A DNA stretch of 64,000 nt, taken from NCBI GenBank assembly GCA_963826105.1, contig CAWGWA010000011.1, positions 67,823 through 131,822 of the forward strand, in the 5' to 3' direction. Every line of letters begins with the position of its first letter. The first letter of the stretch is position 1. This document shows positions 8,535 to 40,139 of this stretch, piece by piece. A program made the translations under genes and the position numbers. Origin of the DNA: an uncultured Actinomycetes bacterium. GTDB lineage: Bacteria > Actinomycetota > CADDZG01 > WHSQ01. The notes below the pieces were generated by a model. It was not told the DNA's origin, did not search any database, and saw only the letters and a program-made list of their open reading frames with translations.

Positions 8535-10223
8535 CTAACCGCGCCAGACGCCCACCCCGTCGATGATCACCTTCTTGCCCGAGGAGAGCACCTCGATCGT
8601 GAGCGTCCCGCGCTGCTGGTCGGGGAAGGCGCCGACCACGATCGCGACGCGGTCCTTGCGGGCCCCCGACTTCAAAGAGATCGTCTGAAGCACCTGGCCG
8701 TCGAAGCGGACCTCGATCTTGCCGCAGCTCGGACACTTCGAGACGAGAAGACCGAAGCGTCGACCCCGGATGTCCTTCAGCTTGAGCGTCTTCCCCTGCT
8801 GCGCGGTTTCCTTATAGGTGCTCCGGTAGAAGTCGGACCCGGCCCCCTTGCTCCATCCACCGCCGGTGAGAGAGCGATCGTCGGCCCGCACCGCGACACA
8901 CTTCTCCGGCCCCCACGACGAGGTGTTGCCGGCTTCGTCGGTCGCTCGAGCGGAGTAGCAGTAGGTGCGGCCGGGCTCGCCCTGCATGTCGCCGGACTTC
9001 GCATCGGTGTCGTTCTGCCATTGGCTCTGGGATGAGAAGTGACCCCGGAGGCCCGCCTCGCGGTAGCGAACGTCGTAGGTCAGGGCGTCACTGACGTCAT
9101 CGGTCGCCGCCCATCGCACCTCAACGCGACCCGATGCTGAGACGTCGCCTTCCGGTGACTTGACCGTGGCGTCTTCGGGCGCCTTGCCGTCCCCGATCTC
9201 TCCGGTACTGGCCGGGGATTGCGCGGTGCCGCCTTCGTTGGTTGCCGTCACCTGTCCCTTGAGCGTCTTCCCGTGGTCGGCGCGATGCACCTCGTAGACG
9301 GGATCGGTTGCGCCGGCGATCACTTCACAGGTGTTGGCCGCGGTGCATCGTTTCCACTGATAGGAGAAGGCGATCGGCTTCGTTCCCTTCCACTCTCCGG
9401 GGGACACGGTCAGGGTTCCGCCGGTCTTCTCCTCACCGGAGATCTCGGGCTCGGTCTTGATGGTTGGCGGAACCGGGATCCGGAACTCCTTAAGAGCGCC
9501 GGTCTGCGCGTGATTCAGATCGACATTCCCCTTGATGCCGGGGACCGAGCCCTGGCTCGTGTACTGCCAGAACGACCACCCGTTCCCGCCCCAGTTGTTG
9601 GCGAACTCCATCGGGTTGTTGGCGGTGGTGTAGTGCGCGACCCAGAGTCCGTAACCCTCGAGAGCGAATTCCTCGGTGTCGTCGATGCGCGTCTTCCACG
9701 TGTTCGGGCTCGTGTAGATCAGGGGTTTCACTCCGGTACCGGCCTCGACCCGGTTCAGCCACGTCCGCACCCAGATCTTGAGGCTCTGCGCGTCGAGCCC
9801 GCCGAGGTCGGCCTCGAAGTCGAGCACTGGGTAGAGGTCGCCGGGGGCCGGGGCTCCGGTGGCGAGGAAATGGTTCGCCTCGCCGCGCGCATCCTCCCTA
9901 ACCTCTTCGTCCGTGCCCCCGTTGGGGCGGGCGAAGTGATAGGCGCCGATCCTGAGGCCGGCCGCGTTCGCATCCGTGCGGTTGGCTCCGTAGTAGGGGT
10001 CGACGTACGTGTCTCGCTCGGTGGCTTTGATAAACGTGAATCGGTACCCGGCCTCGGCGACTTGGGTCCAGTCGATCTCGCCCTTGTCGTTCTGCCAGTG
10101 GGACACATCGATGCCGGGGATCCGTGCTGCCTGCGCGGTGCCCGATGCGAGGGTCGTCACGATCAGGGCCAGGCCGACAACAGTCCGCCGGCCCCATGAT
10201 CCCCGCCTGGTCCTTCCGAACAT
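8535..10223 (-). CDS. secreted GH25 muramidase (lysozyme) with Ig/FN3-like C-terminal domains
   Basis: GIDVSHWQNDKGEIDWTQVAEAGYRFTFIKATE...GAYHFARP is the GH25 signature. I prefer ATG 10223 (MFGRTRRGSWGRRTVVGLALIVTTLASGTAQA, a signal peptide) over the tracked start at 10622. Confidence 0.8.
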   Translation of the reverse strand: MFGRTRRGSWGRRTVVGLALIVTTLASGTAQAARIPGIDVSHWQNDKGEIDWTQVAEAGYRFTFIKATERDTYVDPYYGANRTDANAAGLRIGAYHFARPNGGTDEEVREDARGEANHFLATGAPAPGDLYPVLDFEADLGGLDAQSLKIWVRTWLNRVEAGTGVKPLIYTSPNTWKTRIDDTEEFALEGYGLWVAHYTTANNPMEFANNWGGNGWSFWQYTSQGSVPGIKGNVDLNHAQTGALKEFRIPVPPTIKTEPEISGEEKTGGTLTVSPGEWKGTKPIAFSYQWKRCTAANTCEVIAGATDPVYEVHRADHGKTLKGQVTATNEGGTAQSPASTGEIGDGKAPEDATVKSPEGDVSASGRVEVRWAATDDVSDALTYDVRYREAGLRGHFSSQSQWQNDTDAKSGDMQGEPGRTYCYSARATDEAGNTSSWGPEKCVAVRADDRSLTGGGWSKGAGSDFYRSTYKETAQQGKTLKLKDIRGRRFGLLVSKCPSCGKIEVRFDGQVLQTISLKSGARKDRVAIVVGAFPDQQRGTLTIEVLSSGKKVIIDGVGVWRG

Positions 10224-10685: not shown

Positions 10686-11645
10686 ATGAGCCAGACGTCG
10701 CGACCGTCACGGTCGTACGAATCGCGAGAGGAAGCCGCCCACGAGGATCTCGTTAGGCAGTATCTCCGCGAGATCGGTCAGTACCCTCTCCTCACAGACG
10801 TCCAAGAGGTCGAGCTCGCCAAGGCGATCGAGGACGGCGAGAAGGCCCAAGAAAAGATGGACAAGGCCAAGAAGCTGTCCGACAAGCAGCGCATCGAGCT
10901 GCAGACCCGCATCCGGGTCGGTCGCCAGGCCAAGCGCCGCTTCATCCAGTCCAACCTCCGCCTCGTGGTTTCGATCGCGAAGAAGTACTCCGCGGCAGGA
11001 CTCCCCCTCCTCGACCTGATCCAGGAAGGGAACCTCGGCCTGATGCGAGCGGTCGAGAAGTTCGACTACCAGCGAGGCTTCAAGTTCTCCACCTACGCGA
11101 CCTGGTGGATCCGTCAGGCCATCACCCGTGCGATCGCGGACAAGGCCCGCACGATCCGGATCCCCGTGCACATGGTCGAGACCCTCTACCGGGTCCGCAA
11201 GGTCCAGAGCGAGCTCCTCGAGAAGCTGGGCCGAGAGCCCACCATCGACGAGATCGCTGACCAGTCCGACCTCACTCCCGACAAGGTGCGCGAGGCGTTC
11301 CGTGTGCTCCCCGAGCCGGTCTCGCTCCACGAGCCGGTTGGTGACGAGGACGCGGAACTGGGCGACTTCATCGAAGACGAGGACGTCGAAGGTCCCTTCC
11401 AGGCCGCCGCCGTTGCGCTGCGCCAGGAGGACCTGTGGAACATGCTGGGCTCGCTGTCCGATCGTGAGCGCAAGGTACTCGCGCTCCGTTTCGGGCTAAT
11501 CACCGGCGAGCCGCGGACGCTCGAAGAGGTCGGTAAAGAGTTCAACCTGACCCGTGAGCGGATCCGTCAGATCGAGGCCAAGGCGCTCAGCAAGCTGCGC
11601 CACCCCTCGACCCCGGGCAAGCTCCGCGACATGGTCACCATCTAG
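10686..11645 (+). CDS. RNA polymerase sigma-70 factor, RpoD/SigB-like (group 1/2)
   Basis: Region 2 ([12 protein letters not shown]...[40 protein letters not shown]), region 3, and region 4 ([24 protein letters not shown]). At 319 aa it has a short region 1. Confidence 0.9.
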
Positions 11646-11680
11646 CCACCTCCGAAGCGGCAACGAAGTACGCTCACGAG

Positions 11681-11971
11681 ATGGTTACAACCGTTGTCTT
11701 AGCCAACTGCGACATCGACCGCGTTCCCGAAGCGGCCCAGCAGGTCGCCGATCTCCCGGAGGTATCCGAGGTCTATTCGGTCGCGGGCGATTACGACCTC
11801 GTCATCATGATCCGGGTGCGCAAGCACGAGGATCTCGCGCGGGTCGTGACCGAAGGGATCCGGCGGGTGCCGGGGATCGAGCAGACGCGGACCCTCGTGG
11901 CGTTCAAGGTCTATTCCCGCCACGACGTGGAGTCCTTGTTCTCGCTGGGGTTCGACGAAGAGACCTCCTAG
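11681..11971 (+). CDS. Lrp/AsnC ligand-binding (RAM) domain-only protein
   Basis: 96 aa. [29 protein letters not shown]...[13 protein letters not shown] is typical of the AsnC_trans_reg domain. No HTH is present. Confidence 0.6.
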
Positions 11972-11984
11972 AACGGGTGGGGCC

Positions 11985-13160
11985 ATGGATGCTCTGATCG
12001 CCCACTATCACGAGATCGGTCTCAAGGGCCGCAACCGGATGTTCTTCGAGGACGCCCTCGTAAAGAATCTGAGGCGCGCGCTCGAAGGCACCGGTTACAG
12101 GAAGGTGCAGCGCAACTACGGGCGCGTCCTGATCGAACTGAACCCCGATGCCGATACCGAAGAGGTCATCGCGCGGGCCTCCCGAGTCTTCGGCATCGCC
12201 TACGTCGGAGCCGGTGTCCAGGTTGCCGCCGACCTCGATGAGATCAAAGAGGTCTCGTTGTCACTCCTGCAAGCGGAACCCTTCACGTCATTCGCGATCA
12301 GGGCACGCCGGCAGAACTCTAGCCTCGAGATGAAGAGCAACGAGATAAACATCGCGGTCGGCTCGCATGTCCAGGCCGCGATCGATGCCCCCGTCGATCT
12401 CTCGAATCCGGACGCGACCGTGTGGATCGAGTTGTTCGACGAGGGTGGGGTCGTGTTCCGACGCAGAGTACGGGGGCCGGGAGGACTTCCCGTCGGGACC
12501 TCCGGGCGCATGCTCGCGCTGCTTTCGGGCGGGATCGACTCCCCAGTCGCGGCGTGGCGCATGGCGCGGCGCGGCGCCGTCGTCGAATTCGTCCATTTCC
12601 ACGGACAACCGTTCACCGATCCCTCATCGGTTCGCCAGGCCCAGGAACTCGCCGAGGTTCTCGCTCGGTACCAGCTCAAAGCCAAGCTCCACCTCATCCC
12701 GCTGGCCGACGCCCAACGCGAGATCGTGACCCATGCGGCCTCGAGCATGCGCGTGGTCCTCTACCGGCGGACCATGATGCGCATCGCGTCGGCGCTCGCT
12801 GATGAGCTGGCGTGCAAAGCATTGATCACCGGGGACTCACTCGGACAGGTGGCGTCGCAGACGATCGAGAACATCAAGACCGTCGACGATGCGATCCCCG
12901 GCGTCGAGGTGCTGCGGCCCCTGATCGGCAACGACAAGCAGGAGATCATCGACCTCGCGATCGAGATCGGTACCTACGACATCTCGACCCGTGCCTATCA
13001 GGACTGCTGCGTTCTCTTCGAGCCCCGCTCCCCCGCCACCCGATCGAAGGTCGAGCAGGCAGAACTGGGCGAGTCCGAACTGGACATCGACGCGCTGGTC
13101 GGCAAAGCCCTCGCCGCCCGCGAGACGATCCAGATCGCGTTTCCCCCAAGCGTTAGCTAG
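11985..13160 (+). CDS. thiI: tRNA 4-thiouridine(8) synthase ThiI (no rhodanese domain)
   Basis: THUMP-like N-terminus and PP-loop ALLSGGIDSPVAAW, followed by LITGDSLGQVASQT. Confidence 0.9.
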   Translation: MDALIAHYHEIGLKGRNRMFFEDALVKNLRRALEGTGYRKVQRNYGRVLIELNPDADTEEVIARASRVFGIAYVGAGVQVAADLDEIKEVSLSLLQAEPFTSFAIRARRQNSSLEMKSNEINIAVGSHVQAAIDAPVDLSNPDATVWIELFDEGGVVFRRRVRGPGGLPVGTSGRMLALLSGGIDSPVAAWRMARRGAVVEFVHFHGQPFTDPSSVRQAQELAEVLARYQLKAKLHLIPLADAQREIVTHAASSMRVVLYRRTMMRIASALADELACKALITGDSLGQVASQTIENIKTVDDAIPGVEVLRPLIGNDKQEIIDLAIEIGTYDISTRAYQDCCVLFEPRSPATRSKVEQAELGESELDIDALVGKALAARETIQIAFPPSVS

Positions 13161-30655: not shown

Positions 30656-31087
30656 ATGGACCCCGCTCAGATCGGACCCGAAGAATTCGCTCAACTCGTC
30701 AAGACCGCTCCGGATGACCAGATCGAGGAAGTCATCCACTCGGTGGGGACCGAGAAGACCCTTACCCGGATCTTCGAGGGCTTCGAAGAGCGCTTCGTTC
30801 CGGCCAAGGCCGAGGGCGTCTCCGCGGACATCCTGTTCGTGATCAAGGACGACAAGGAGGAGCACCCCTACGTCGTCTCGATCAAGGACGGGACCTGCAC
30901 CACCCGCCGTGAGCAGATCTCCGATCCGAAGACCACGCTGTCGCTGAAACTGCTTCCGTTCGTGAAGCTCGTAACCGGTCAGGCCGACGGCATGAAGCTG
31001 TTCATGACCCGCAAGCTCAAGATCTCGGGCGATCTCATGTTCGCCCAACGGGTGATGACGTTCTTCGACCGCCCCAGCGCCGACTAG
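30656..31087 (+). CDS. SCP2 sterol-binding domain protein
   Basis: ATG 30656 lies just after the dehalogenase stop. C-terminal KLLPFVKLVTGQADGMKLFMTRKLKISGDLMFAQRV is the SCP2 signature. Confidence 0.7.
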   Translation: MDPAQIGPEEFAQLVKTAPDDQIEEVIHSVGTEKTLTRIFEGFEERFVPAKAEGVSADILFVIKDDKEEHPYVVSIKDGTCTTRREQISDPKTTLSLKLLPFVKLVTGQADGMKLFMTRKLKISGDLMFAQRVMTFFDRPSAD

Positions 31088-31302
31088 ACCCGACTAGAGA
31101 TACCAACCTCTCAAGCAGGGGCCCCGGCGGACCACGTAGTACCCAGCGTCGGGGGACGGGAATCGTGGCATCACTCCGCCATTCGGCGCAGTGAGAATAA
31201 GACGTCTGGGGTCCTGGAATGAGACTCCCGGAGGATGAATGTGCCAAGGCCCGCAAGCAAGATGAGGTCGTTCTGGAACTCAGCATCCCCTAGGGAGGAA
31301 AC

Positions 31303-31389
31303 GTGACGTTCGAGGCGCCCCGCGTGATCGACTTCGGCTCTATCGCTCAGCACACCTTTGCCGGCGACAAAGGCAAGGACAAGTTCTGA
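31303..31389 (+). CDS. lasso-type RiPP precursor-like peptide (28 aa)
   Basis: GTG 31303 lies 4 nt after GGGAGGAA and encodes MTFEAPRVIDFGSIAQHTFAGDKGKDKF. Residues 3-19 match the lasso leader motif YxxPxLx3Gx5Tx at every conserved position (F,P,V,G,T). It is followed by a hairpin and a PqqD gene. The ORF is too short for the ORF track. Confidence 0.55.
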   Translation: MTFEAPRVIDFGSIAQHTFAGDKGKDKF

Positions 31390-31390
31390 T

Positions 31391-31413
31391 GGCAGGGCTT
31401 TTCCTAGCCCGCC
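31391..31413 (+). promoter_or_regulatory. intercistronic stem-loop after the precursor ORF
   Basis: GGC(A)GGGC-TTTTCCTA-GCCCGCC forms a 7-bp stem with one bulge, starting 2 nt after the TGA. There is no U-tract. This fits the attenuator or mRNA-stabiliser hairpins often found after RiPP precursor genes. Confidence 0.4.
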
Positions 31414-31468
31414 AACGGCATCCCGCCACTTCGGCGAAACGGTCGCGCTGTCTACTAGGGGAGGATGG

Positions 31469-31753
31469 ATGAACGAGGTCTACGTACACGCTCCACGGGT
31501 CGTTTTCCGTAGCCTGAAAGAGGGAGAGGGCGGCGTCCTTCTCCACATGGGCACGGGTCAGTACCACGGCGTCAACGAGACCGGTGCATACCTGTGGGAG
31601 AAGCTCGACGGCGCCCGCACCCTCGAGAACATCGCCGCCGACGTCACCAAGGACTTCACCGACCCGCCCAAGGGTCTCGAGACCTTGATCAAGGACTTCT
31701 TCTCCGACCTCGCCGAGCGTGAGCTCGTCGTTGCGGAGACCGTCGACGCCTAG
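31469..31753 (+). CDS. PqqD-family protein (RiPP recognition element / lasso B1-like)
   Basis: 94 aa from ATG 31469, with GGGGAGGA upstream. GGVLLHMGTGQYHGVNETGAYLWEKLDGARTLENIAADVTKDF...IKDFFSDLAERELV is the PqqD-family pattern. Confidence 0.75.
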   Translation: MNEVYVHAPRVVFRSLKEGEGGVLLHMGTGQYHGVNETGAYLWEKLDGARTLENIAADVTKDFTDPPKGLETLIKDFFSDLAERELVVAETVDA

Positions 31754-31777
31754 GGCATCGAGCGCGACGCTAGAACG

Positions 31778-32686
31778 GTGAACTCACTTGGGACCTGTTA
31801 CGGCTACGACGTCCATTCCACGATGGAGTTGTCGTACCTGCGCGGGGGAAAGGGCGATCGTCTGCACGTCTCCGTGGTCGACGTCGATCACCCGGTGCCG
31901 GACGAGGAGCCGCTACTTGAGTGGCTCCCCACCGAACACCCCTTCGGCGCGGCCCTCTGGAAACTTCCCACCGGCCTCTGGCAACTATGGGTCGATGGCG
32001 TCGGTTGGTTCCGGATCGATCCCCAAGGCCTCCGCATCGAGGTCCCGGTTTCGACCGATCTAGTAAGGCTGGAAGAGCGGATCTGGGGTATCCCCACGCT
32101 GCTTTGTTTCCTGGAACGCGGCGACCTGCCGCTTCACGCGGCCGCGGTCGAGATCGACGGCAAGGCCGTCGTCCTGGCGGCACCGGGGCACGCCGGCAAG
32201 ACCACCCTCGCGGGGGCCTGCGCCACCGCCGGCTTCCGGGTGTTGAGCGAGGACCTCACCTGCATCCGATTCAACGACGGGCACCCCTCGATCATCCCGG
32301 GTCCCGCGATGATCCGGTTGCGCGAAGACGTCTCCTCGCACGTGAAGGTTCCCGGCAACGTCCTCGGCACCAGCGAAGGCCGCGTCCACATCGGACTCGA
32401 CACCGCTAACCGTGGCACTTGCGAACCAGTGCCGCTCGCAGCCGTCTACCTCCTCAACAAGACATCAGAGGGGATCGCCATCGAGCCGCACTCCCCCGTC
32501 GATGCCCTGTCCGATCTCTGGGGGTTGTCGTTCCGTGTGCCGACCGACGAAGACCGTACGAGGTGTTTCAACGGGGTCGTCGACCTCGTGAGTGCGGTTC
32601 CCGTTTACGACCTCTATCGTCCGCTGACCTACGGGACGCTCCCGCAGGTGGTCAGAGCACTTGAAGGCTCGGTGCTCCATGGTTGA
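31778..32686 (+). CDS. HPr kinase-like (HprK-related) serine kinase-family protein
   Basis: 302 aa. LPLHAAAVEIDGKAVVLAAPGHAGKTTLAGACATAGFRVLSEDLTCI resembles the P-loop core of the HPr kinase C-terminal domain and of the HprK-related kinases found in peptide-modification loci. Confidence 0.7.
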   Translation: MNSLGTCYGYDVHSTMELSYLRGGKGDRLHVSVVDVDHPVPDEEPLLEWLPTEHPFGAALWKLPTGLWQLWVDGVGWFRIDPQGLRIEVPVSTDLVRLEERIWGIPTLLCFLERGDLPLHAAAVEIDGKAVVLAAPGHAGKTTLAGACATAGFRVLSEDLTCIRFNDGHPSIIPGPAMIRLREDVSSHVKVPGNVLGTSEGRVHIGLDTANRGTCEPVPLAAVYLLNKTSEGIAIEPHSPVDALSDLWGLSFRVPTDEDRTRCFNGVVDLVSAVPVYDLYRPLTYGTLPQVVRALEGSVLHG

Positions 32687-32827
32687 GATCAAGGTCGCGA
32701 CGTTGTCACGGTTCCAGAAGATTGCACTCGCCGCGCGCATCCAGATCCTCGGTGCGAACGACGACGCTGCGTGGTGCAGTCGCTCGTCCTTCATCGCCTC
32801 CTCGCGGCGCAGGGAGACCGCCGGTAG

Positions 32828-33031
32828 CTAGTGGTGATGGGTCGCTTCTACGACCGCTCCTAGCTTCTCGCTCCAGGTGTTGTGTCCGTGGATCAAGGTG
32901 TGGATCAAGTCATCGACGACCTCATGGTCTGACGTGGGATCGGCGGCCGCCGTCAACCACGCATCGACCGACTTCTGATAGTCGCCCCAGGCCCCCTTCA
33001 GGTCGTTCCAATCGACTGACTCGGCCATCAT
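32828..33031 (-). CDS. small acidic hypothetical protein (66-67 aa, C-terminal THHH)
   Basis: Strong SD GAAGGAGGA lies directly upstream of the tandem ATG ATG. Helical, acidic composition. No family recognised. Confidence 0.45.
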   Translation of the reverse strand: MMAESVDWNDLKGAWGDYQKSVDAWLTAAADPTSDHEVVDDLIHTLIHGHNTWSEKLGAVVEATHHH

Positions 33032-33164
33032 TCCTCCTTCGCGGCCCGTGGGCCGATCATCTGAACCGTCAATTATCGTTCCCTGAGCCTGCCATGCCCG
33101 GGAGTACGTCTACGAGGCCACCGAAGGAGAGCGGATCAGCAAGCCGATCGAGGACTATGCGCTC

Positions 33165-34961
33165 GTGGGCGATACGCACACGGCTGCCCTCATTGCGCGC
33201 GATGGCTCGGTCGATTGGCTGTGTCTGCCCCGTTTCGACTCGCCGGCGATCTTCGCGGCGCTCCTGGACACCGAGGATGCGGGGCACTGGTCGATCACCG
33301 TCGTCGATCAGGTCGGCGAGCCGACGCGCTCATACACCGAGGGCACTCTCATCCTCGAGACCACGCTCAGAGGGCCGTCAGGGGCCGTCACAGTCACGGA
33401 TCTCATGCCGCTCGAACGCACTCTTGATGTCGACGACCCGACGCCGATCCGGTCCGACAACGCATTCCTTCGCCTCGTGCGCTGCGACGAAGGAACCGTA
33501 GATCTCGAGATGACGTTCTCGCCCCGATTCGGCTACGGGCGCGATGAACCGACGCTCGAGCAACGAGGCGGTGAGCTGCGGGCCGAGGTTAAGGACCTGT
33601 CGGTGAGCCTGCGAAGCGAGATCGACCTCGAGGTCGACGGCGGAACCGCTCGCGGTGCCTTCAGCCTCGCGGTCGATGAAAGAAGAGCTTTCGTCCTCCA
33701 AGTCAACGGCGACCAAGGGATCGGACGACTGCTCCCGGAAGATGTCGAACCGGCGATCGAAACGAGCACGAAGTTCTGGCGTTCATGGCTAGGTCGCTGT
33801 ACCTACGGAGGGATGTGGGCGGCAGAAGTGCGGACCAGCCTCCTCACGCTCAAGGGACTCACCTACTCGCCCACGGGAGGGATCGTCGCGGCGCCGACCA
33901 CTTCCCTTCCGGAAGACCTCGGAGGCGTAAGGAACTGGGACTACCGTTTCTGCTGGCTGCGCGATGCGACGTTCACGCTCGACGTCCTGTTGGAGTACGG
34001 ATTCACCGGCGAGGCGGTCGAGTGGCGCAACTGGCTCCTCGGAGCCATCCGCGACAACGGGGGCAAGTTGCAGCCGCTGTTCGACGTGAGAGGCGGAACC
34101 TTGCTCCCCGAGCAGGAGATCGATTGGCTCAAGGGCTACGAGAACTCCAAACCGGTGAGGATCGGTAACGCCGCCAGCGAGCAGTTCCAGCTCGACATCT
34201 ACGGCGAGATACTCGACGCGATGCACTCAGCTCGTCGTGCCGGTCTCCGGACCGCCCCCGACGAGTGGGAGATGGAGCGGAAACTCATCGGGCTGGTGCT
34301 CGAGCGGTGGATGGAACCCGATGCCGGCATCTGGGAGGTCCGTGGTCCACAGCACAACTTCGTTCACTCCAAGGTCATGGCCTGGGTTGCGCTCGATCGT
34401 GGGATCAAGGCGGTCGAGGTGTTCGGCCTCCCCGGAGATACCAAGCAGTGGCACGATGCCCGCACCGTGATCAGGAACGACATCCTTGCCAACGGCGTCG
34501 ATGAAGCACGGGGGACATTCAAGAGATCGTACGAAGACGCGGGGCTCGACGCCTCGCTTCTGATGCTGCCGATGGTCGGGTTCGTTGACGCGAACGACGA
34601 CACGATGCGGAACACGATCGATGCGATCGAAGCGGATCTCGTTCGAGATGGGTTCGTCATGCGGTACCTGAGTCCCGATGGACTTCCCGGCGACGAGGGG
34701 ACGTTCCTGTTGTGCACCTGCTGGCTCGTCGACAACCTCGTGATGGTCGAAAGAGAAGACGATGCCCGCGTCTACCTCGATCGCGTCCTCGGGGTTACCA
34801 ACGACCTCGGACTGCTCGCCGAGATGTACGACGTCCGAGCCGGACGACTCGTCGGTAACTTCCCCCAAGCCTTCTCTCACATCGCGGTGGCGGCCGCGGC
34901 GATGGCGTTCGAGAGCCACGGACAGACCCCGACGATCCACCGGGAGTCGCAATGGAAGTGA
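33165..34961 (+). CDS. glycoside hydrolase family 15 (glucoamylase/trehalase-like)
   Basis: GDTHTAALIARDGSVDWLCLPRFDSPAIFAALL...RNWDYRFCWLRDATF...CTCWLV. The conserved PIEDYALVGD begins upstream of the tracked GTG. ATG 33094 (MPG) is out of frame by -1 in the C/G run at about 33097-33102, so the true 5' end is probably 33094 with an indel. Confidence 0.85.
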   Translation: MGDTHTAALIARDGSVDWLCLPRFDSPAIFAALLDTEDAGHWSITVVDQVGEPTRSYTEGTLILETTLRGPSGAVTVTDLMPLERTLDVDDPTPIRSDNAFLRLVRCDEGTVDLEMTFSPRFGYGRDEPTLEQRGGELRAEVKDLSVSLRSEIDLEVDGGTARGAFSLAVDERRAFVLQVNGDQGIGRLLPEDVEPAIETSTKFWRSWLGRCTYGGMWAAEVRTSLLTLKGLTYSPTGGIVAAPTTSLPEDLGGVRNWDYRFCWLRDATFTLDVLLEYGFTGEAVEWRNWLLGAIRDNGGKLQPLFDVRGGTLLPEQEIDWLKGYENSKPVRIGNAASEQFQLDIYGEILDAMHSARRAGLRTAPDEWEMERKLIGLVLERWMEPDAGIWEVRGPQHNFVHSKVMAWVALDRGIKAVEVFGLPGDTKQWHDARTVIRNDILANGVDEARGTFKRSYEDAGLDASLLMLPMVGFVDANDDTMRNTIDAIEADLVRDGFVMRYLSPDGLPGDEGTFLLCTCWLVDNLVMVEREDDARVYLDRVLGVTNDLGLLAEMYDVRAGRLVGNFPQAFSHIAVAAAAMAFESHGQTPTIHRESQWK

Positions 34962-36776: not shown

Positions 36777-39470
36777 TCAGGTTCTCATCACCTGCGCGAT
36801 GTCCGCTCGGTCGATGCTTCTTTGTACCCGCCAAGCCGAGACTGCGGAGGCGCCGCAAGTGACCACCACCGTTGCCGCGATCGTCATCATAGGGATGACG
36901 AGTAGCGGATCCGGAGGAAGGGTGGGCCGCAGATCCAGTTGCACGTGCATCAGAGCCGCGACCGGCAGGCCCGCCGCCGCAGCGACTCCGAGCGAGATTA
37001 GCGCCGCGCCGAGGATCTCGGCGAGCGAAGTCATGAACTCCGCCCCGCGTGAGAACCCCATCCTCCGCGTGATCGCGCTCGCGATGACTGTGTCCCGATG
37101 GCGCGCCTGGAGATAGAGGAACAAACCCAGCATCGCGATCAGACCGGCCGCGGCTCCGAGGGCGCCAAGAACACCCAGGGTCCACAACAGCGACTGCAAA
37201 CCCGGTGTGTCCAACACCACGGCGGTGTCGACCGTGCGCAAGAAACTGATGTCATTCTCGATCAACGTCGGGAGGATCGTCTCTGGATCTCCCGAGGCCC
37301 ATAATTCTTGATCGGGCGGCGAGATCGACGATCCGATCGTCTCGAGGATCTCGTGGAAGTTGTCGATCGTCACCACGACCGCATTCTCGTCGCCGGCTAT
37401 CCCCGGGAAAGAGTCGAGGGTCTCCACTACCTGAAGGGGCACCTGCTCGCCGCCTCCGTTGAGTGGTCCCGACAGCCGCTCACCGACCGAGGCCGCGGGG
37501 GCTGAGTCTCCTTCGGCGGTCAGCTCCTCGAGCAGCTCGGCCAACGAGATATCGGCGAACGTCGTATCCCAATAGGCCGCCTCCTCGAACGTCGTGGGGT
37601 CGATCCCGACCAGGGTCACTTGCTGGAACCCATCCCCCGCCGAGATGCCATCGGCTTGTGACACCAGCGTGGTTGGGAACGGCAGACCCTGCGGCTGCTC
37701 GGCGGACGATGTCACCGCAGCGAAATCACTTCCCACGAAAAGCCTCGCCTTGGCTTCCGTCGACGCCTTAACTGAGGAACCGACGGTTATCCCGTACAAC
37801 ATCACTCCGAGAGCACACGCCCCCGCGGTGACGAGAACCTGCGTCATCCCGGGGGCCCCTGCGAGTCTGCGAGAGGCTAGGTAAAGAGAAGGCGTCCCAT
37901 CCCGGAGCAAGCGCCCGACGCGCGGCATCAGGAGGCGCAGGCCCATCGCGCCGACCACCGACACGCAGAGGATCAACCCGATCGGCAGAGCCATCGTCAT
38001 CGGATCGCGCAAACCGGCACCTTCGGAAGCTTCGAGATGATTCCGCAATGCGATCATCGCGGCCACCCCGAAGATGGCGAAGGCGATGGCTACCCCCAGG
38101 GCTCGGTGCTCCGTGGTCACGTCCCCTTCTTCGGCGATCTCCTTCTCGGCCCGTCGAACCGCGAAGGCAGCGCCAACCGCCATCGTGGCGAGCCCGACCA
38201 GGGCCATGATCGTTACCCGTGTCAGCTCCGACGTCGCGGCCGATGTCGAAAGGTCGCCCGCAGGACCGAGGAGTCGGACAAGGGTGAATCCGACATAGAC
38301 GCCTGCGGCCGTTCCGATCGCCGCTGGCATGGCTCCCTCCAAGCCGTATCGCAGGCCCTGCGCCAACGGACCGATCCCCCGCGCGGATAGAGACCGGGCC
38401 TCGACGACCCGGCGCCTGACGAGATAGAAGCCTGCCGCCGCCATGACGCCCAGTGCGACCAGGCCCCCGGCCACGGCAAGGAGATCAACAACCGGAGTGA
38501 CCGAATCGATCCTCTCGGCGGCGGCCGAGCGCACGAGGGGCAGAAGGCTTCCAACGTCAAAGGTGTAGTTGTCGATGGGGAGTTCTCCTCGCTGCACCCT
38601 GACCCTCGTAGCCCGCGCCGCCTCGTCGAGGCGGTCCACGAGCGAGTTCACCTCAGCCATGGTGGGCTCGGGCAACTCGATCGGAGCTTCCCACCGGATA
38701 TCGGGAAAGTCGCCGAGGCGTGCGGTGAGCTCGTAATACTCGTCGCTGGTGACGATCGCGAAGCTAGCCGGAAAGGTCTCGTCAGAGGTTCCTCGATAGA
38801 TCAGCTCCCCGAATCCCTGCCAGAACGGGCGCGGTTCGTCGAGCGGCAGGAACCGGTAGATGCCGGCCACCCGGATCTCCCTTTCCCGCGTCGGTCCCGA
38901 GATCTCGATGAGGTCACCCGGTTCCGCCCCGATCTGTTCGGCGGTGACGTCGGCGAGCCAAACTCCGTCGTTCGGATTGTCCGCCTCGGCGAGCTTCACC
39001 ACGTTGTCGAGTGCGCCTTCGCGCTTGATCAGCCTGATTTCCTTCTGGACATCTCCGGCCGAAACCCGGCTGATAGCGCTGACAAGTGAGGTGGATACGC
39101 GGCCAAGCTGAGGGATGCCCTCGATCTCCTCGGTTATCGCGGCGCGCACCTCCTCCTCGATCGCCCTCATCCTTCGAGCGTCACGCAGGGGATCCTCGGG
39201 CCCCCCGCCCAGGCGGAAGCCCGTCGAGTAGCTAGCCCGGAGGCCGGCTCCCCACTTAGAGACGTCGCTTATCTCGGTACGCAGAGACGAGGTTTCACTC
39301 GACTGCAGGAATGCCGGACCGGACGATGTCGCGATCGCGAGGATCGCCGCGCTGAGAACCGTGATCCCGAGGATCTGTGGGAACCGGCGAAGGAGCAGTG
39401 GAGCTCTCACCCACAGGATCGCTGCGCGGCCGGCGCGCTTCCGTCGGGTCCTCTCCTTCGGTGAAGTCAC
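36777..39470 (-). CDS. large FtsX-family ABC transporter permease (~897 aa)
   Basis: GTG 39470 overlaps the TGA of the upstream ATPase (GTGTGA). The N-terminus VTSPKERTRRKRAGRAAILWVRAPLLLRRFP leads into TM segments, with large extracytoplasmic loops and two FtsX-like TM bundles. It is tracked as part of the 1120-aa ORF 36777..40139. Confidence 0.7.
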   Translation of the reverse strand: MTSPKERTRRKRAGRAAILWVRAPLLLRRFPQILGITVLSAAILAIATSSGPAFLQSSETSSLRTEISDVSKWGAGLRASYSTGFRLGGGPEDPLRDARRMRAIEEEVRAAITEEIEGIPQLGRVSTSLVSAISRVSAGDVQKEIRLIKREGALDNVVKLAEADNPNDGVWLADVTAEQIGAEPGDLIEISGPTREREIRVAGIYRFLPLDEPRPFWQGFGELIYRGTSDETFPASFAIVTSDEYYELTARLGDFPDIRWEAPIELPEPTMAEVNSLVDRLDEAARATRVRVQRGELPIDNYTFDVGSLLPLVRSAAAERIDSVTPVVDLLAVAGGLVALGVMAAAGFYLVRRRVVEARSLSARGIGPLAQGLRYGLEGAMPAAIGTAAGVYVGFTLVRLLGPAGDLSTSAATSELTRVTIMALVGLATMAVGAAFAVRRAEKEIAEEGDVTTEHRALGVAIAFAIFGVAAMIALRNHLEASEGAGLRDPMTMALPIGLILCVSVVGAMGLRLLMPRVGRLLRDGTPSLYLASRRLAGAPGMTQVLVTAGACALGVMLYGITVGSSVKASTEAKARLFVGSDFAAVTSSAEQPQGLPFPTTLVSQADGISAGDGFQQVTLVGIDPTTFEEAAYWDTTFADISLAELLEELTAEGDSAPAASVGERLSGPLNGGGEQVPLQVVETLDSFPGIAGDENAVVVTIDNFHEILETIGSSISPPDQELWASGDPETILPTLIENDISFLRTVDTAVVLDTPGLQSLLWTLGVLGALGAAAGLIAMLGLFLYLQARHRDTVIASAITRRMGFSRGAEFMTSLAEILGAALISLGVAAAAGLPVAALMHVQLDLRPTLPPDPLLVIPMMTIAATVVVTCGASAVSAWRVQRSIDRADIAQVMRT

Positions 39471-40139
39471 ACCCGCTCCCCGACGATCCGGCCGTCTTCC
39501 ATCTCGATGATGCGGTCGAGATGCTCCATGACGCGCTCGGCTATGGGTCGCGACGAGACAGGAAGCCCCACTCGAGACCGCGGCGCGGAACGCGGCGAAG
39601 ACGATCTCCTCGCGTTGCGCGTCCTGGTGTCCGGTCGGCTCATCGGCGATCACAAGACGAGGAGACATCACGAAAGCTCGAGCTAGGGCCGTCCGTTGCT
39701 GTTCACCCATCGACACCTGGCGCGGCCGGCGACCCACGAGGTGGCCTAGCTCGAGCAGATCGACGACCTCATCCACCCGAGCGGCACGCTGCCGGGACCT
39801 CTGCCCGGTAAGCATCAGTGGGAGGCCGATGTTGTCGGCCAGACTGAGCTCATCCAGCAGGCCGAGCCTTTGCGGGACAACGGCGATCTGGTCCCACAAC
39901 AACCGGCCCATCACCGGCCTCGAACCCATCCACGACACCTCACCGTGATCCGCGTGCTCCCAGCCGCACAGGACGTTGATCAGGGTCGTCTTGCCCGAGC
40001 CCGACGGCCCCACTACGCCAACGAGCTCGCCCGGGCCGATCGAAAAGCTGACCTCCCTTAGGGCGTGGACGGTTTCGGGTCCACGGTGGTAGGCCTTGCT
40101 GATGTCGGAGAGCTCGGCGAGGGCCTGAGGCGAGGTCAT
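39467..40139 (-). pseudogene. ABC transporter ATP-binding protein, frameshifted near its 3' end
   Basis: GPSGSGKTTLINVL, VSMGEQQRTALARA and LVIADEPTGHQD. After ...CLVATH the expected tail (IAERVMEHLDRIIEMEDGRIVGERV*) is in the +1 frame, with the shift near 39545. This artificially fuses the ORF to the permease. Confidence 0.8.

Follow-up and report, generated by a model that had tools for sequence, protein, structure and literature searches.

What can a peptide locus make if it encodes a lasso-type precursor, a leader-binding protein and a kinase-like enzyme, with neither a cyclase to close a ring nor a working peptidase to remove the leader? Such a locus lies in a 64-kb stretch of the genome of an uncultured member of the Actinomycetota (hereafter, the window). 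On the plus strand it comprises a 28-codon small open reading frame (sORF; precursor gene A, 31303..31389), a gene for a 94-aa PqqD-family protein (B1, 31469..31753) and a gene for a 302-aa protein (K, 31778..32686) resembling HPr kinase (HprK). The original prediction, made from the DNA letters alone, had described these three ORFs, and all are borne out. It saw in them a decayed lasso cluster, a trans-acting tailoring module or a distinct leader-dependent system. The reading favoured here, with moderate confidence, is that of a lasso-derived, partly eroded locus in which the B1–K pair still works, its substrate being encoded elsewhere. Comparison with relatives indicates descent from a split-B, kinase-tailored lasso cluster with genes for a precursor (A), B1, K, a leader peptidase (B2) and a nucleotidyltransferase (NT). 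Searches of the window covered its 64 kb, about 31 kb either side of the locus, and other loci were inspected over 10 kb each side of K.

A Precursor Cut Short by a Nonsense Codon

The sORF runs from a GTG at 31303 to a TGA ending at 31389, and its product is MTFEAPRVIDFGSIAQHTFAGDKGKDKF, with the leader MTFEAPRVIDFGSIAQHTF and a remaining core of AGDKGKDKF. A hidden Markov model (HMM) was trained on leaders that adjoin kinase homologues at other loci, 66 distinct sequences of 17 residues each, the window's own clade being excluded. Among 1612 six-frame segments of the window its sole match was 31294–31386 (E 4.7e-11), the runner-up having an E value of 0.87. F3, P6, V8, G12 and T18 are in register with the lasso leader motif, as originally proposed, and the match is far beyond chance. 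Judged by its sequence, the sORF product is a true lasso-type precursor. Across the 19 leader codons, nine differ from those of the relative L006 only synonymously and three non-synonymously, which argues that the leader has been translated and constrained.

Four contigs (L005, L009, L006 and L008) share the gene order of the window, in which an SCP2 gene lies upstream and the locus is followed by a 67-aa gene, GH15 and EamA. Their K proteins are 95% (L005), 98% (L009) and 80–81% (L006 and L008) identical to that of the window. The TGA at 31387–31389 aligns to CGA in L005 and to TGG in L006. Beyond it the frame continues to a TAG at 31405–31407, and the TAG, the frame and the length are common to the window, L005 and L006. 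The former 3′ end of the gene (31390..31407, plus strand; TGG CAG GGC TTT TCC TAG, or WQGFS*) is now untranslated. The ancestral ORF would have had 34 codons and a 15-residue core, AGDKGKDKF(R/W)WQGFS, with a C-terminal Ser. In L006 and L008 this 34-codon ORF is intact, encoding MTFEAPRVVDFGSIARHAFEGEENVTNDWWHGLF in the same frame as the window sORF.

As translated, the core has nine residues, with only two following Asp7, where a threadable core needs at least about 13. It contains no Ser, Thr or Tyr, the only Ser lying in the untranslated WQGFS*. Both oddities had been pointed out before, and both hold for the translated peptide, but they are not intrinsic to the gene, because the premature TGA has shortened a 15-residue core. 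In the read-through core Asp7 is followed by bulky residues and the last residue is Ser, which answers the objections that the tail could not thread and that the kinase would have nothing to modify.

The close relatives carry precursor lesions of their own. The L005 gene has a TAG two codons earlier than the window TGA (the L005 assembly has evident frameshifts in neighbouring genes, and its single-base features need caution), and in L009 about 25 codons are deleted, including the whole leader. The lesions thus differ among three close relatives.

The precursors of L006 (6404–6508) and L008 (6586–6690) have Ala at leader position −2, where the other leaders have Thr in 66 of 66 cases. Thr(−2) has been linked to processing by B2 (PMC10368454), and L006 and L008, which have lost this otherwise invariant residue, are the relatives without B2.

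A hairpin had been noted after the sORF. It exists, and covers what used to be the 3′ codons of the precursor gene, but is unremarkable (z −1.1 against shuffled sequences). A terminator or attenuator role was rejected, the fold being no better than shuffled, with no T-run and no terminator-like site. Recoding of the UGA at 31387, as selenocysteine or by read-through, came into question because of the hairpin behind it and was likewise rejected, since in L005 the same hairpin follows a CGA, the L006 codon is TGG, and the hairpin lacks significance.

Deletion of the Peptidase and Nucleotidyltransferase Genes

In L005 and L009, K is followed by an intact B2 gene (135 aa, PF13471) and an NTP_transf_5 gene (PF14907), the Pfam matches being those of the L005 proteins. 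Comparison by blastn showed that the window lacks L005 positions 10988–11103 and 11176–12476, i.e., it carries deletions of 116 bp and 1.3 kb. What remains of B2, a transglutaminase-like (Transglut_core3) leader peptidase, is a pseudogene remnant at 32680..32819 (plus strand). Its ATG and the K stop codon overlap, codons 1–26 are left, and a piece comprising about codons 71–92 follows out of frame. A tblastn search with the L005 B2 aligned residues 1–26 at 88% identity and residues 71–97 at 81% in a different frame, and an HMM of 65 B2 proteins matched the remnant with an E value of 1.4e-5. The rest of B2 and the entire NTP_transf_5 gene have been deleted. The two B2 deletions are not base-calling errors. 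The earlier statement that no leader peptidase is present therefore stands as regards a working enzyme, but overlooked the pseudogene that follows K.

The absence of a lasso cyclase from the window, also claimed originally, was upheld: tblastn with two lasso cyclases gave E values of at least 0.3, and an HMM of 54 family cyclases gave a best value of 0.21. The same HMM found no match in L005, L006, L008 or L009 within the sequence inspected. L006 and L008 lack B2 and NT as well as the cyclase. The window locus is accordingly without three defining features of a lasso cluster, namely a cyclase, B2 and a threadable core.

B1 and the Kinase-Like Protein Are Intact

The 94-aa protein matches PF05402 (E 3.2e-15) and an HMM of 69 B1 proteins from the lasso–kinase family (E ~1e-33). 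Both results agree with the role first assigned to it, that of lasso B1 or RRE, the recognition element of peptides that are ribosomally synthesised and modified after translation (RiPPs), and by these matches the protein is a lasso B1. Its best NCBIfam match is ScmD, and both the ScmD and the lasso PqqD models outscore TIGR04353.

K retains all invariant columns of its family, with motif residues H120, G140-K141-T142-T143 and E158-D159. The His lies 21 residues before the P-loop Lys and the acidic pair 17–18 after it, a spacing equal to that of H148, K169 and D186-D187 in the lasso precursor kinase BsfK. The fold and motif that mark lasso precursor kinases (His, P-loop Gly-Lys-Ser/Thr, acidic pair) are thus present. 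An AlphaFold2 model of K had a pLDDT of 93.8, and a Foldseek search with it placed PEP carboxykinase (PEPCK; E 7.5e-9) and HPr kinase/phosphorylase (HprK/P; E 3.6e-7) among the top matches, from which K is predicted to be a kinase-fold P-loop protein. In a search of PDB sequences the kinase profile gave only weak P-loop matches, to HprK/P (E 0.003).

The best NCBIfam match of K is TIGR04352 (HprK_rel_A; E 4.3e-14), below the cutoff of that model, and a Pfam scan with a copy older than PF27840 found no match, PF07475 included. PF27840 ('ScmC') is carried by homologues of K. The fold match, the motif and the contexts of homologues uphold the claim that the 302-aa protein is an HprK-like kinase of the kind found in lasso clusters. 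Among the candidates scored, the K family took in 581 clusters at E < 0.001. A metagenome scan with K gave a best match 49% identical and no further members of the close clade.

Purifying Selection on B1 and K

Ratios of non-synonymous to synonymous divergence (dN/dS) were calculated by the Nei–Gojobori method from pairwise alignments. Values were 0.024–0.10 for K and 0.125–0.19 for B1, 0.16 and 0.18 for B2 and NT (both L005 versus L009), and 0.05–0.18 for flanking genes. On terminal branches, synonymous and non-synonymous codon changes in K numbered 29 and 2 in the window, 32 and 7 in L005, and 39 and 3 in L009, and both B1 and K are intact across a synonymous divergence (dS) of ~1.4 to L006 and L008. 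Purifying selection on B1 and K, as estimated from these comparisons, is as strong as or stronger than that on neighbouring housekeeping genes.

K has been kept in three lineages with different precursor lesions, and the simpler reading is that K and B1 are independent of the local precursor. The case of L009 points the same way: although its leader is lost, no other K is as well conserved, which argues that K does not depend on the local peptide. That all three lesions should be too recent to have left a trace would be a coincidence.

Divergence is uneven along this part of the genome. Between the window and L005, dS is 0.02–0.11 for SCP2, the 67-aa gene, GH15 and a GGDEF gene, and 0.40 for K. 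In K the window, L005 and L009 are equidistant; in GH15 the window pairs much more closely with L005, a pattern that suggests recombination or allele exchange over a B1–K–B2 patch (31451–32764).

Relatives with Complete Lasso–Kinase Clusters

Homologues of K that are 45–53% identical sit in complete lasso clusters (L001, L002 and L004). These hold a short precursor gene together with Asn_synthase (the cyclase, C), PqqD (B1), ScmC-like K and Transglut_core3 (B2) genes; an NTP_transf_5 gene is usual and ABC transporter genes are frequent. A scan of species-representative genomes yielded 79 loci, mostly from uncultured Gaiellaceae, Thermoleophilia and 'Actinomycetes' metagenome-assembled genomes (MAGs), with Gemmatimonadota, Chloroflexota and Acidimicrobiia contributing some. 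In most of them a cyclase lies within 10 kb, and some MAGs carry two K loci. In nearly all of the 79, K is adjoined by a peptide with the leader Y/F-E-x-P-x-I/V-x-D-x-G-S-I-x-x-H-T-F, behind which the cores are hypervariable, often ending in Ser or Ser-Pro. The shared leader and the complete clusters among the relatives make the window sORF, B1 and K genuine parts of a kinase-type lasso system.

The nearest complete counterparts (L001, L004 and L021) have K proteins 45–53% identical, B1 proteins of the same HMM family (E 1e-33) and near-identical leaders (YEAPxIxDFGSIAxHTF). The window core keeps the GDK and DKF motifs of their cores, xNPGxGDK...TDKFGEYSHP..S. They differ in having a cyclase, B2, NT and often ABC genes, with cores of 25–40 residues, whereas the window clade lacks cyclase genes and has a core of 15 residues, now nine in the window. 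Cores of L001, L004, L016, L021, L028 and others have two motifs in common, x-[NT]-P-G-x-G-[DT]-K at the N terminus and D-K-F-[GC]-E-[YF]-S-[HC]-P...S at the C terminus. Many Actinomycetota cores of the family have no Asp or Glu at positions 7–9 counted from HTF, which puts the cleavage site or ring of that lasso family in doubt.

The closest characterised systems are the kinase-tailored lasso clusters, i.e., those of paeninodin (PadeK), ThcoK, SyanK, pseudomycoidin (PsmK/PsmN) and Bradymonas (BsfK/BsfN). For PadeK, ThcoK, SyanK and PsmK the substrate is the linear precursor and not the folded lasso, the phosphate being placed on the C-terminal Ser, and the nucleotidyltransferase homologue PsmN adds hexose to the phosphate (PMC9266682, PMC8498205). 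BsfK requires the leader and is strongly accelerated by B1; its motif consists of a His, G-x-x-G-x-G-K-S and D-D (PMC10368454). Relatives of the window share with these clusters the precursor, split B1 and B2, HprK-like kinase and nucleotidyltransferase homologue, as well as the leader logic Y-x-x-P-x-L/I...G...T-x, and many cores of the family, the window read-through core included, end in Ser as theirs do. The differences are that K, set beside BsfK by published motif spacing, has E-D in place of D-D and a GK-T-T P-loop; that the characterised clusters come from Firmicutes and Proteobacteria and the window from an uncultured member of the Actinomycetota; that the whole window clade lacks a cyclase at the locus; and that the window precursor is truncated, its B2 a remnant and its NT deleted.

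Likeness to other families is more distant. K homologues carry PF27840, named after ScmC of the SynChlorMet cassette, and ScmD is the best NCBIfam match of the PqqD protein, but membership in that cassette (TIGR04249/TIGR04248) was rejected, K scoring 33.7 bits against a cutoff of 125 and B1 36.9 against 100. There are no radical SAM/SPASM genes among the window neighbours, unlike in the SynChlorMet cassette, and a literature search for ScmC, SynChlorMet or 'HprK-related' found nothing relevant. HprK/P and PEPCK match the K model in fold (Foldseek E 7.5e-9 to 3.6e-7), and HprK/P aligns over the P-loop region. K differs from both in its low identity (10–16%), in an extra N-terminal beta domain and in a context of peptide modification, not of the phosphotransferase system.

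Upstream Region and Neighbouring Genes

The sequence GGGAGGAA at 31293–31300 provides the ribosome-binding site of the sORF, whose GTG begins 2 nt after its end; the 4-nt gap first given is correct when counted from the GGAGG core. This site is part of a conserved region (31170..31302, plus strand) kept in L005 and L009, and blockwise in L006 at ~75% genome identity, where the blocks are AAT.AGAC.TC, GAGACTC.CGG.GGATG and CAAGATGA.G.CGTTC. These ~130 nt upstream of the sORF may be the operator, promoter or 5′ leader of the operon. A sigma-70 promoter scan upstream of the sORF gave no consensus site, and an Rfam scan of 30900–33200 matched no family.

At 31087–31129 the window lacks an 88-aa DUF7218/Rho_N gene (minus strand) that L005 has between SCP2 and the sORF (8996–9262), and the upstream neighbour in L009 encodes a 407-aa beta-propeller-like protein. 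Directly after the deletion junction, on the minus strand, lies the gene for a 67-aa conserved protein ending in HHH, with no Pfam match (32828–33031); in L006, which is missing GH15 too, it is reduced to 36 aa. The region around the cluster appears from these comparisons to be prone to indels and rearrangement. Farther away, a 1120-aa ORF of the window (36777–40139) is represented in L005 (16425–19780) by two genes, one for an ABC ATPase (223 aa) and one for a permease (895 aa). Conversely, L005 has split or shortened genes for the response regulator, alpha/beta hydrolase and LigD, all of them whole in the window. Such split and fused ORFs show that single-base indel differences between the two assemblies are common.

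What the Locus May Still Do

By analogy with characterised relatives, the ancestral B1 would have bound the leader through its Y/F-x-x-P-x-I/V...G...T motif, and K would have phosphorylated the linear precursor so held, most likely at the C-terminal Ser. The nucleotidyltransferase homologue would have elaborated the phosphate, B2 would have cut after Thr(−2)-Phe(−1), and an Asn-synthetase-like cyclase would have closed Ala1 onto Asp7. Today the window encodes only the leader-holding and phosphorylation steps. With a truncated core, a remnant of B2 and neither NT nor cyclase, the local peptide cannot become a lasso or a phosphopeptide. 'Decayed lasso cluster' is thus apt for the precursor, B2 and NT but not for B1 and K, whose strong purifying selection makes 'trans-acting tailoring module' the best reading of the surviving parts. 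The pair would most likely serve to phosphorylate, in a leader-dependent way, a precursor whose gene lies elsewhere in the genome. The third of the original suggestions, a distinct leader-dependent system, may still hold.

Several points weigh against this reading. The trans substrate is hypothetical, the search for precursors and cyclases having covered the 64-kb window, and a complete lasso cluster at another site would normally come with a B1 of its own. In principle, a miscalled base might account for the TGA. Very recent lesions would leave dN/dS low, although three coincidences would be needed. Finally, the cyclase-less state is clade-wide, across a dS of ~1.4, which is more in keeping with a stable system that needs no cyclase than with simple erosion.

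That last point leads to the strongest of the alternatives, in which a leader peptide works with B1 and K, and in some relatives also with B2 and NT, to give a linear phosphorylated or further decorated peptide, and never a lasso, as a stand-alone, cyclase-independent RiPP system, of which the window would be a somewhat damaged member. The cyclase HMM found no match in 19 loci, about a dozen of which have 8–10 kb of sequence on both sides of K, so more distant cyclases are possible. Three layouts recur: A-(ABC)-B1-K-B2-NT (L042, L050, L056, L068, L061, L036, L024, L005 and L009), A-K-NT (L066 and L073) and the A-B1-K triad (L006, L008, L083, L084, L086 and, with its B2 remnant, the window). 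In a simple neighbour-joining tree of the kinases, the cyclase-less loci form several coherent clades. The Acidimicrobiia triads (L083, L084 and L086) have two precursors each, and their K genes show a dN/dS of 0.10–0.17; in the cyclase-less clade of Thermoleophilia dN/dS is uninformative, a GC content of 0.97–0.99 at third codon positions compressing dS. The core of L050, HGRRKKRRRRKHHPGTSNF, has no Asp or Glu, which makes a macrolactam, and with it a lasso ring, impossible. The loss of Thr(−2) in L006 and L008, which lack B2, also fits a stand-alone system, and about half of the 'discrete lasso RRE' hits of RRE-Finder were without both peptidase and cyclase (PMC7470986). For the window itself, however, the system would have a translated core with no residue to phosphorylate, and L009 has kept the best conserved K with no leader beside it; no product or activity is known for such a system. 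As an account of the window it is considered unlikely.

As a statement about the wider family, the proposal that a cyclase-independent RiPP pathway (leader peptide, RRE and HprK-like kinase, with or without B2 and NT) budded off lasso biosynthesis several times in the Actinomycetota, making linear phosphorylated or phospho-decorated peptides, can be offered only tentatively. The window clade and the Acidimicrobiia triads would then be its minimal forms.

Two further features of the cyclase-less loci were observed. One Thermoleophilia MAG carries two such kinase loci (L050, 9215–9361, and L066, 7914–8069) with highly cationic cores, HGRRKKRRRRKHHPGTSNF and DGRRRRRRRPSRPKPPNGPGLSSTF. In loci of the Ca. 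Fervidifonticultor type (L056, 11246–12607; L068, 11247–13328; L061, 1209–3248) the nucleotidyltransferase is ~690 aa long with two NTP_transf_5 matches, and looks like a tandem duplication or fusion.

It is improbable that the whole cluster is dead, with B1 and K open only because inactivation was recent. The nonsense codon, the two deletions in and beyond B2, the lost NT and the missing cyclase are what such a remnant would show. On the window branch, however, K changed at 29 codons synonymously and at two non-synonymously, with similar ratios in L005 and L009, whose precursors carry lesions of their own. B1 and K have moreover stayed intact to L006 and L008, which themselves lack B2, NT and cyclase, and K retains every invariant residue of its family.

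Quite improbable, too, is an ordinary lasso pathway spread over two sites, in which the genes for a cyclase and a functional B2 are at another site and the TGA is merely misread within a 15-residue core ending in Ser. The read-through core is plausible as a lasso core, and two K loci do occur in some MAGs. The B2 lesions, however, are large deletions and not sequencing errors, the L005 and L009 precursors have independent lesions, and nothing cyclase-like lies within 31 kb.

The weakest proposal, that the locus belongs to the HPr-rel-A system of TIGRFAMs and supplies its missing substrate, starts from a distant likeness (an HprK-like P-loop protein paired with a small PqqD-family protein, TIGR04352 being the best NCBIfam match of K and TIGR04353 among those of B1), but is effectively refuted by the curated cutoffs (K, 52.3 against 200 bits; B1, 21.6 against 35 bits), by the higher scores of B1 on the ScmD and lasso PqqD models and by the true relatives of K, which sit in lasso clusters. 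The pair belongs to a different subfamily.

The apparently orphan triad can therefore be explained as a locus of lasso descent, its precursor shortened by a nonsense codon and its peptidase lost by deletion. Its origin is ordinary; of note are a selectively maintained RRE–kinase pair and the recurring cyclase-less layouts. The puzzle that remains is a pair held under housekeeping-level constraint beside a broken precursor, with no cyclase near. The comparisons also reveal that kinase-type lasso clusters in uncultured soil Actinomycetota make up a large family, as yet uncharacterised. Relatives without a cyclase occur repeatedly, in several lineages, and the cores of some are unable to form a lasso ring. 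If the B1–K pair needs no cyclase for its work, it would represent a simple pathway of peptide phosphorylation guided by a leader, and this would also explain part of the many 'lasso-type' RREs that have been mined without lasso machinery.

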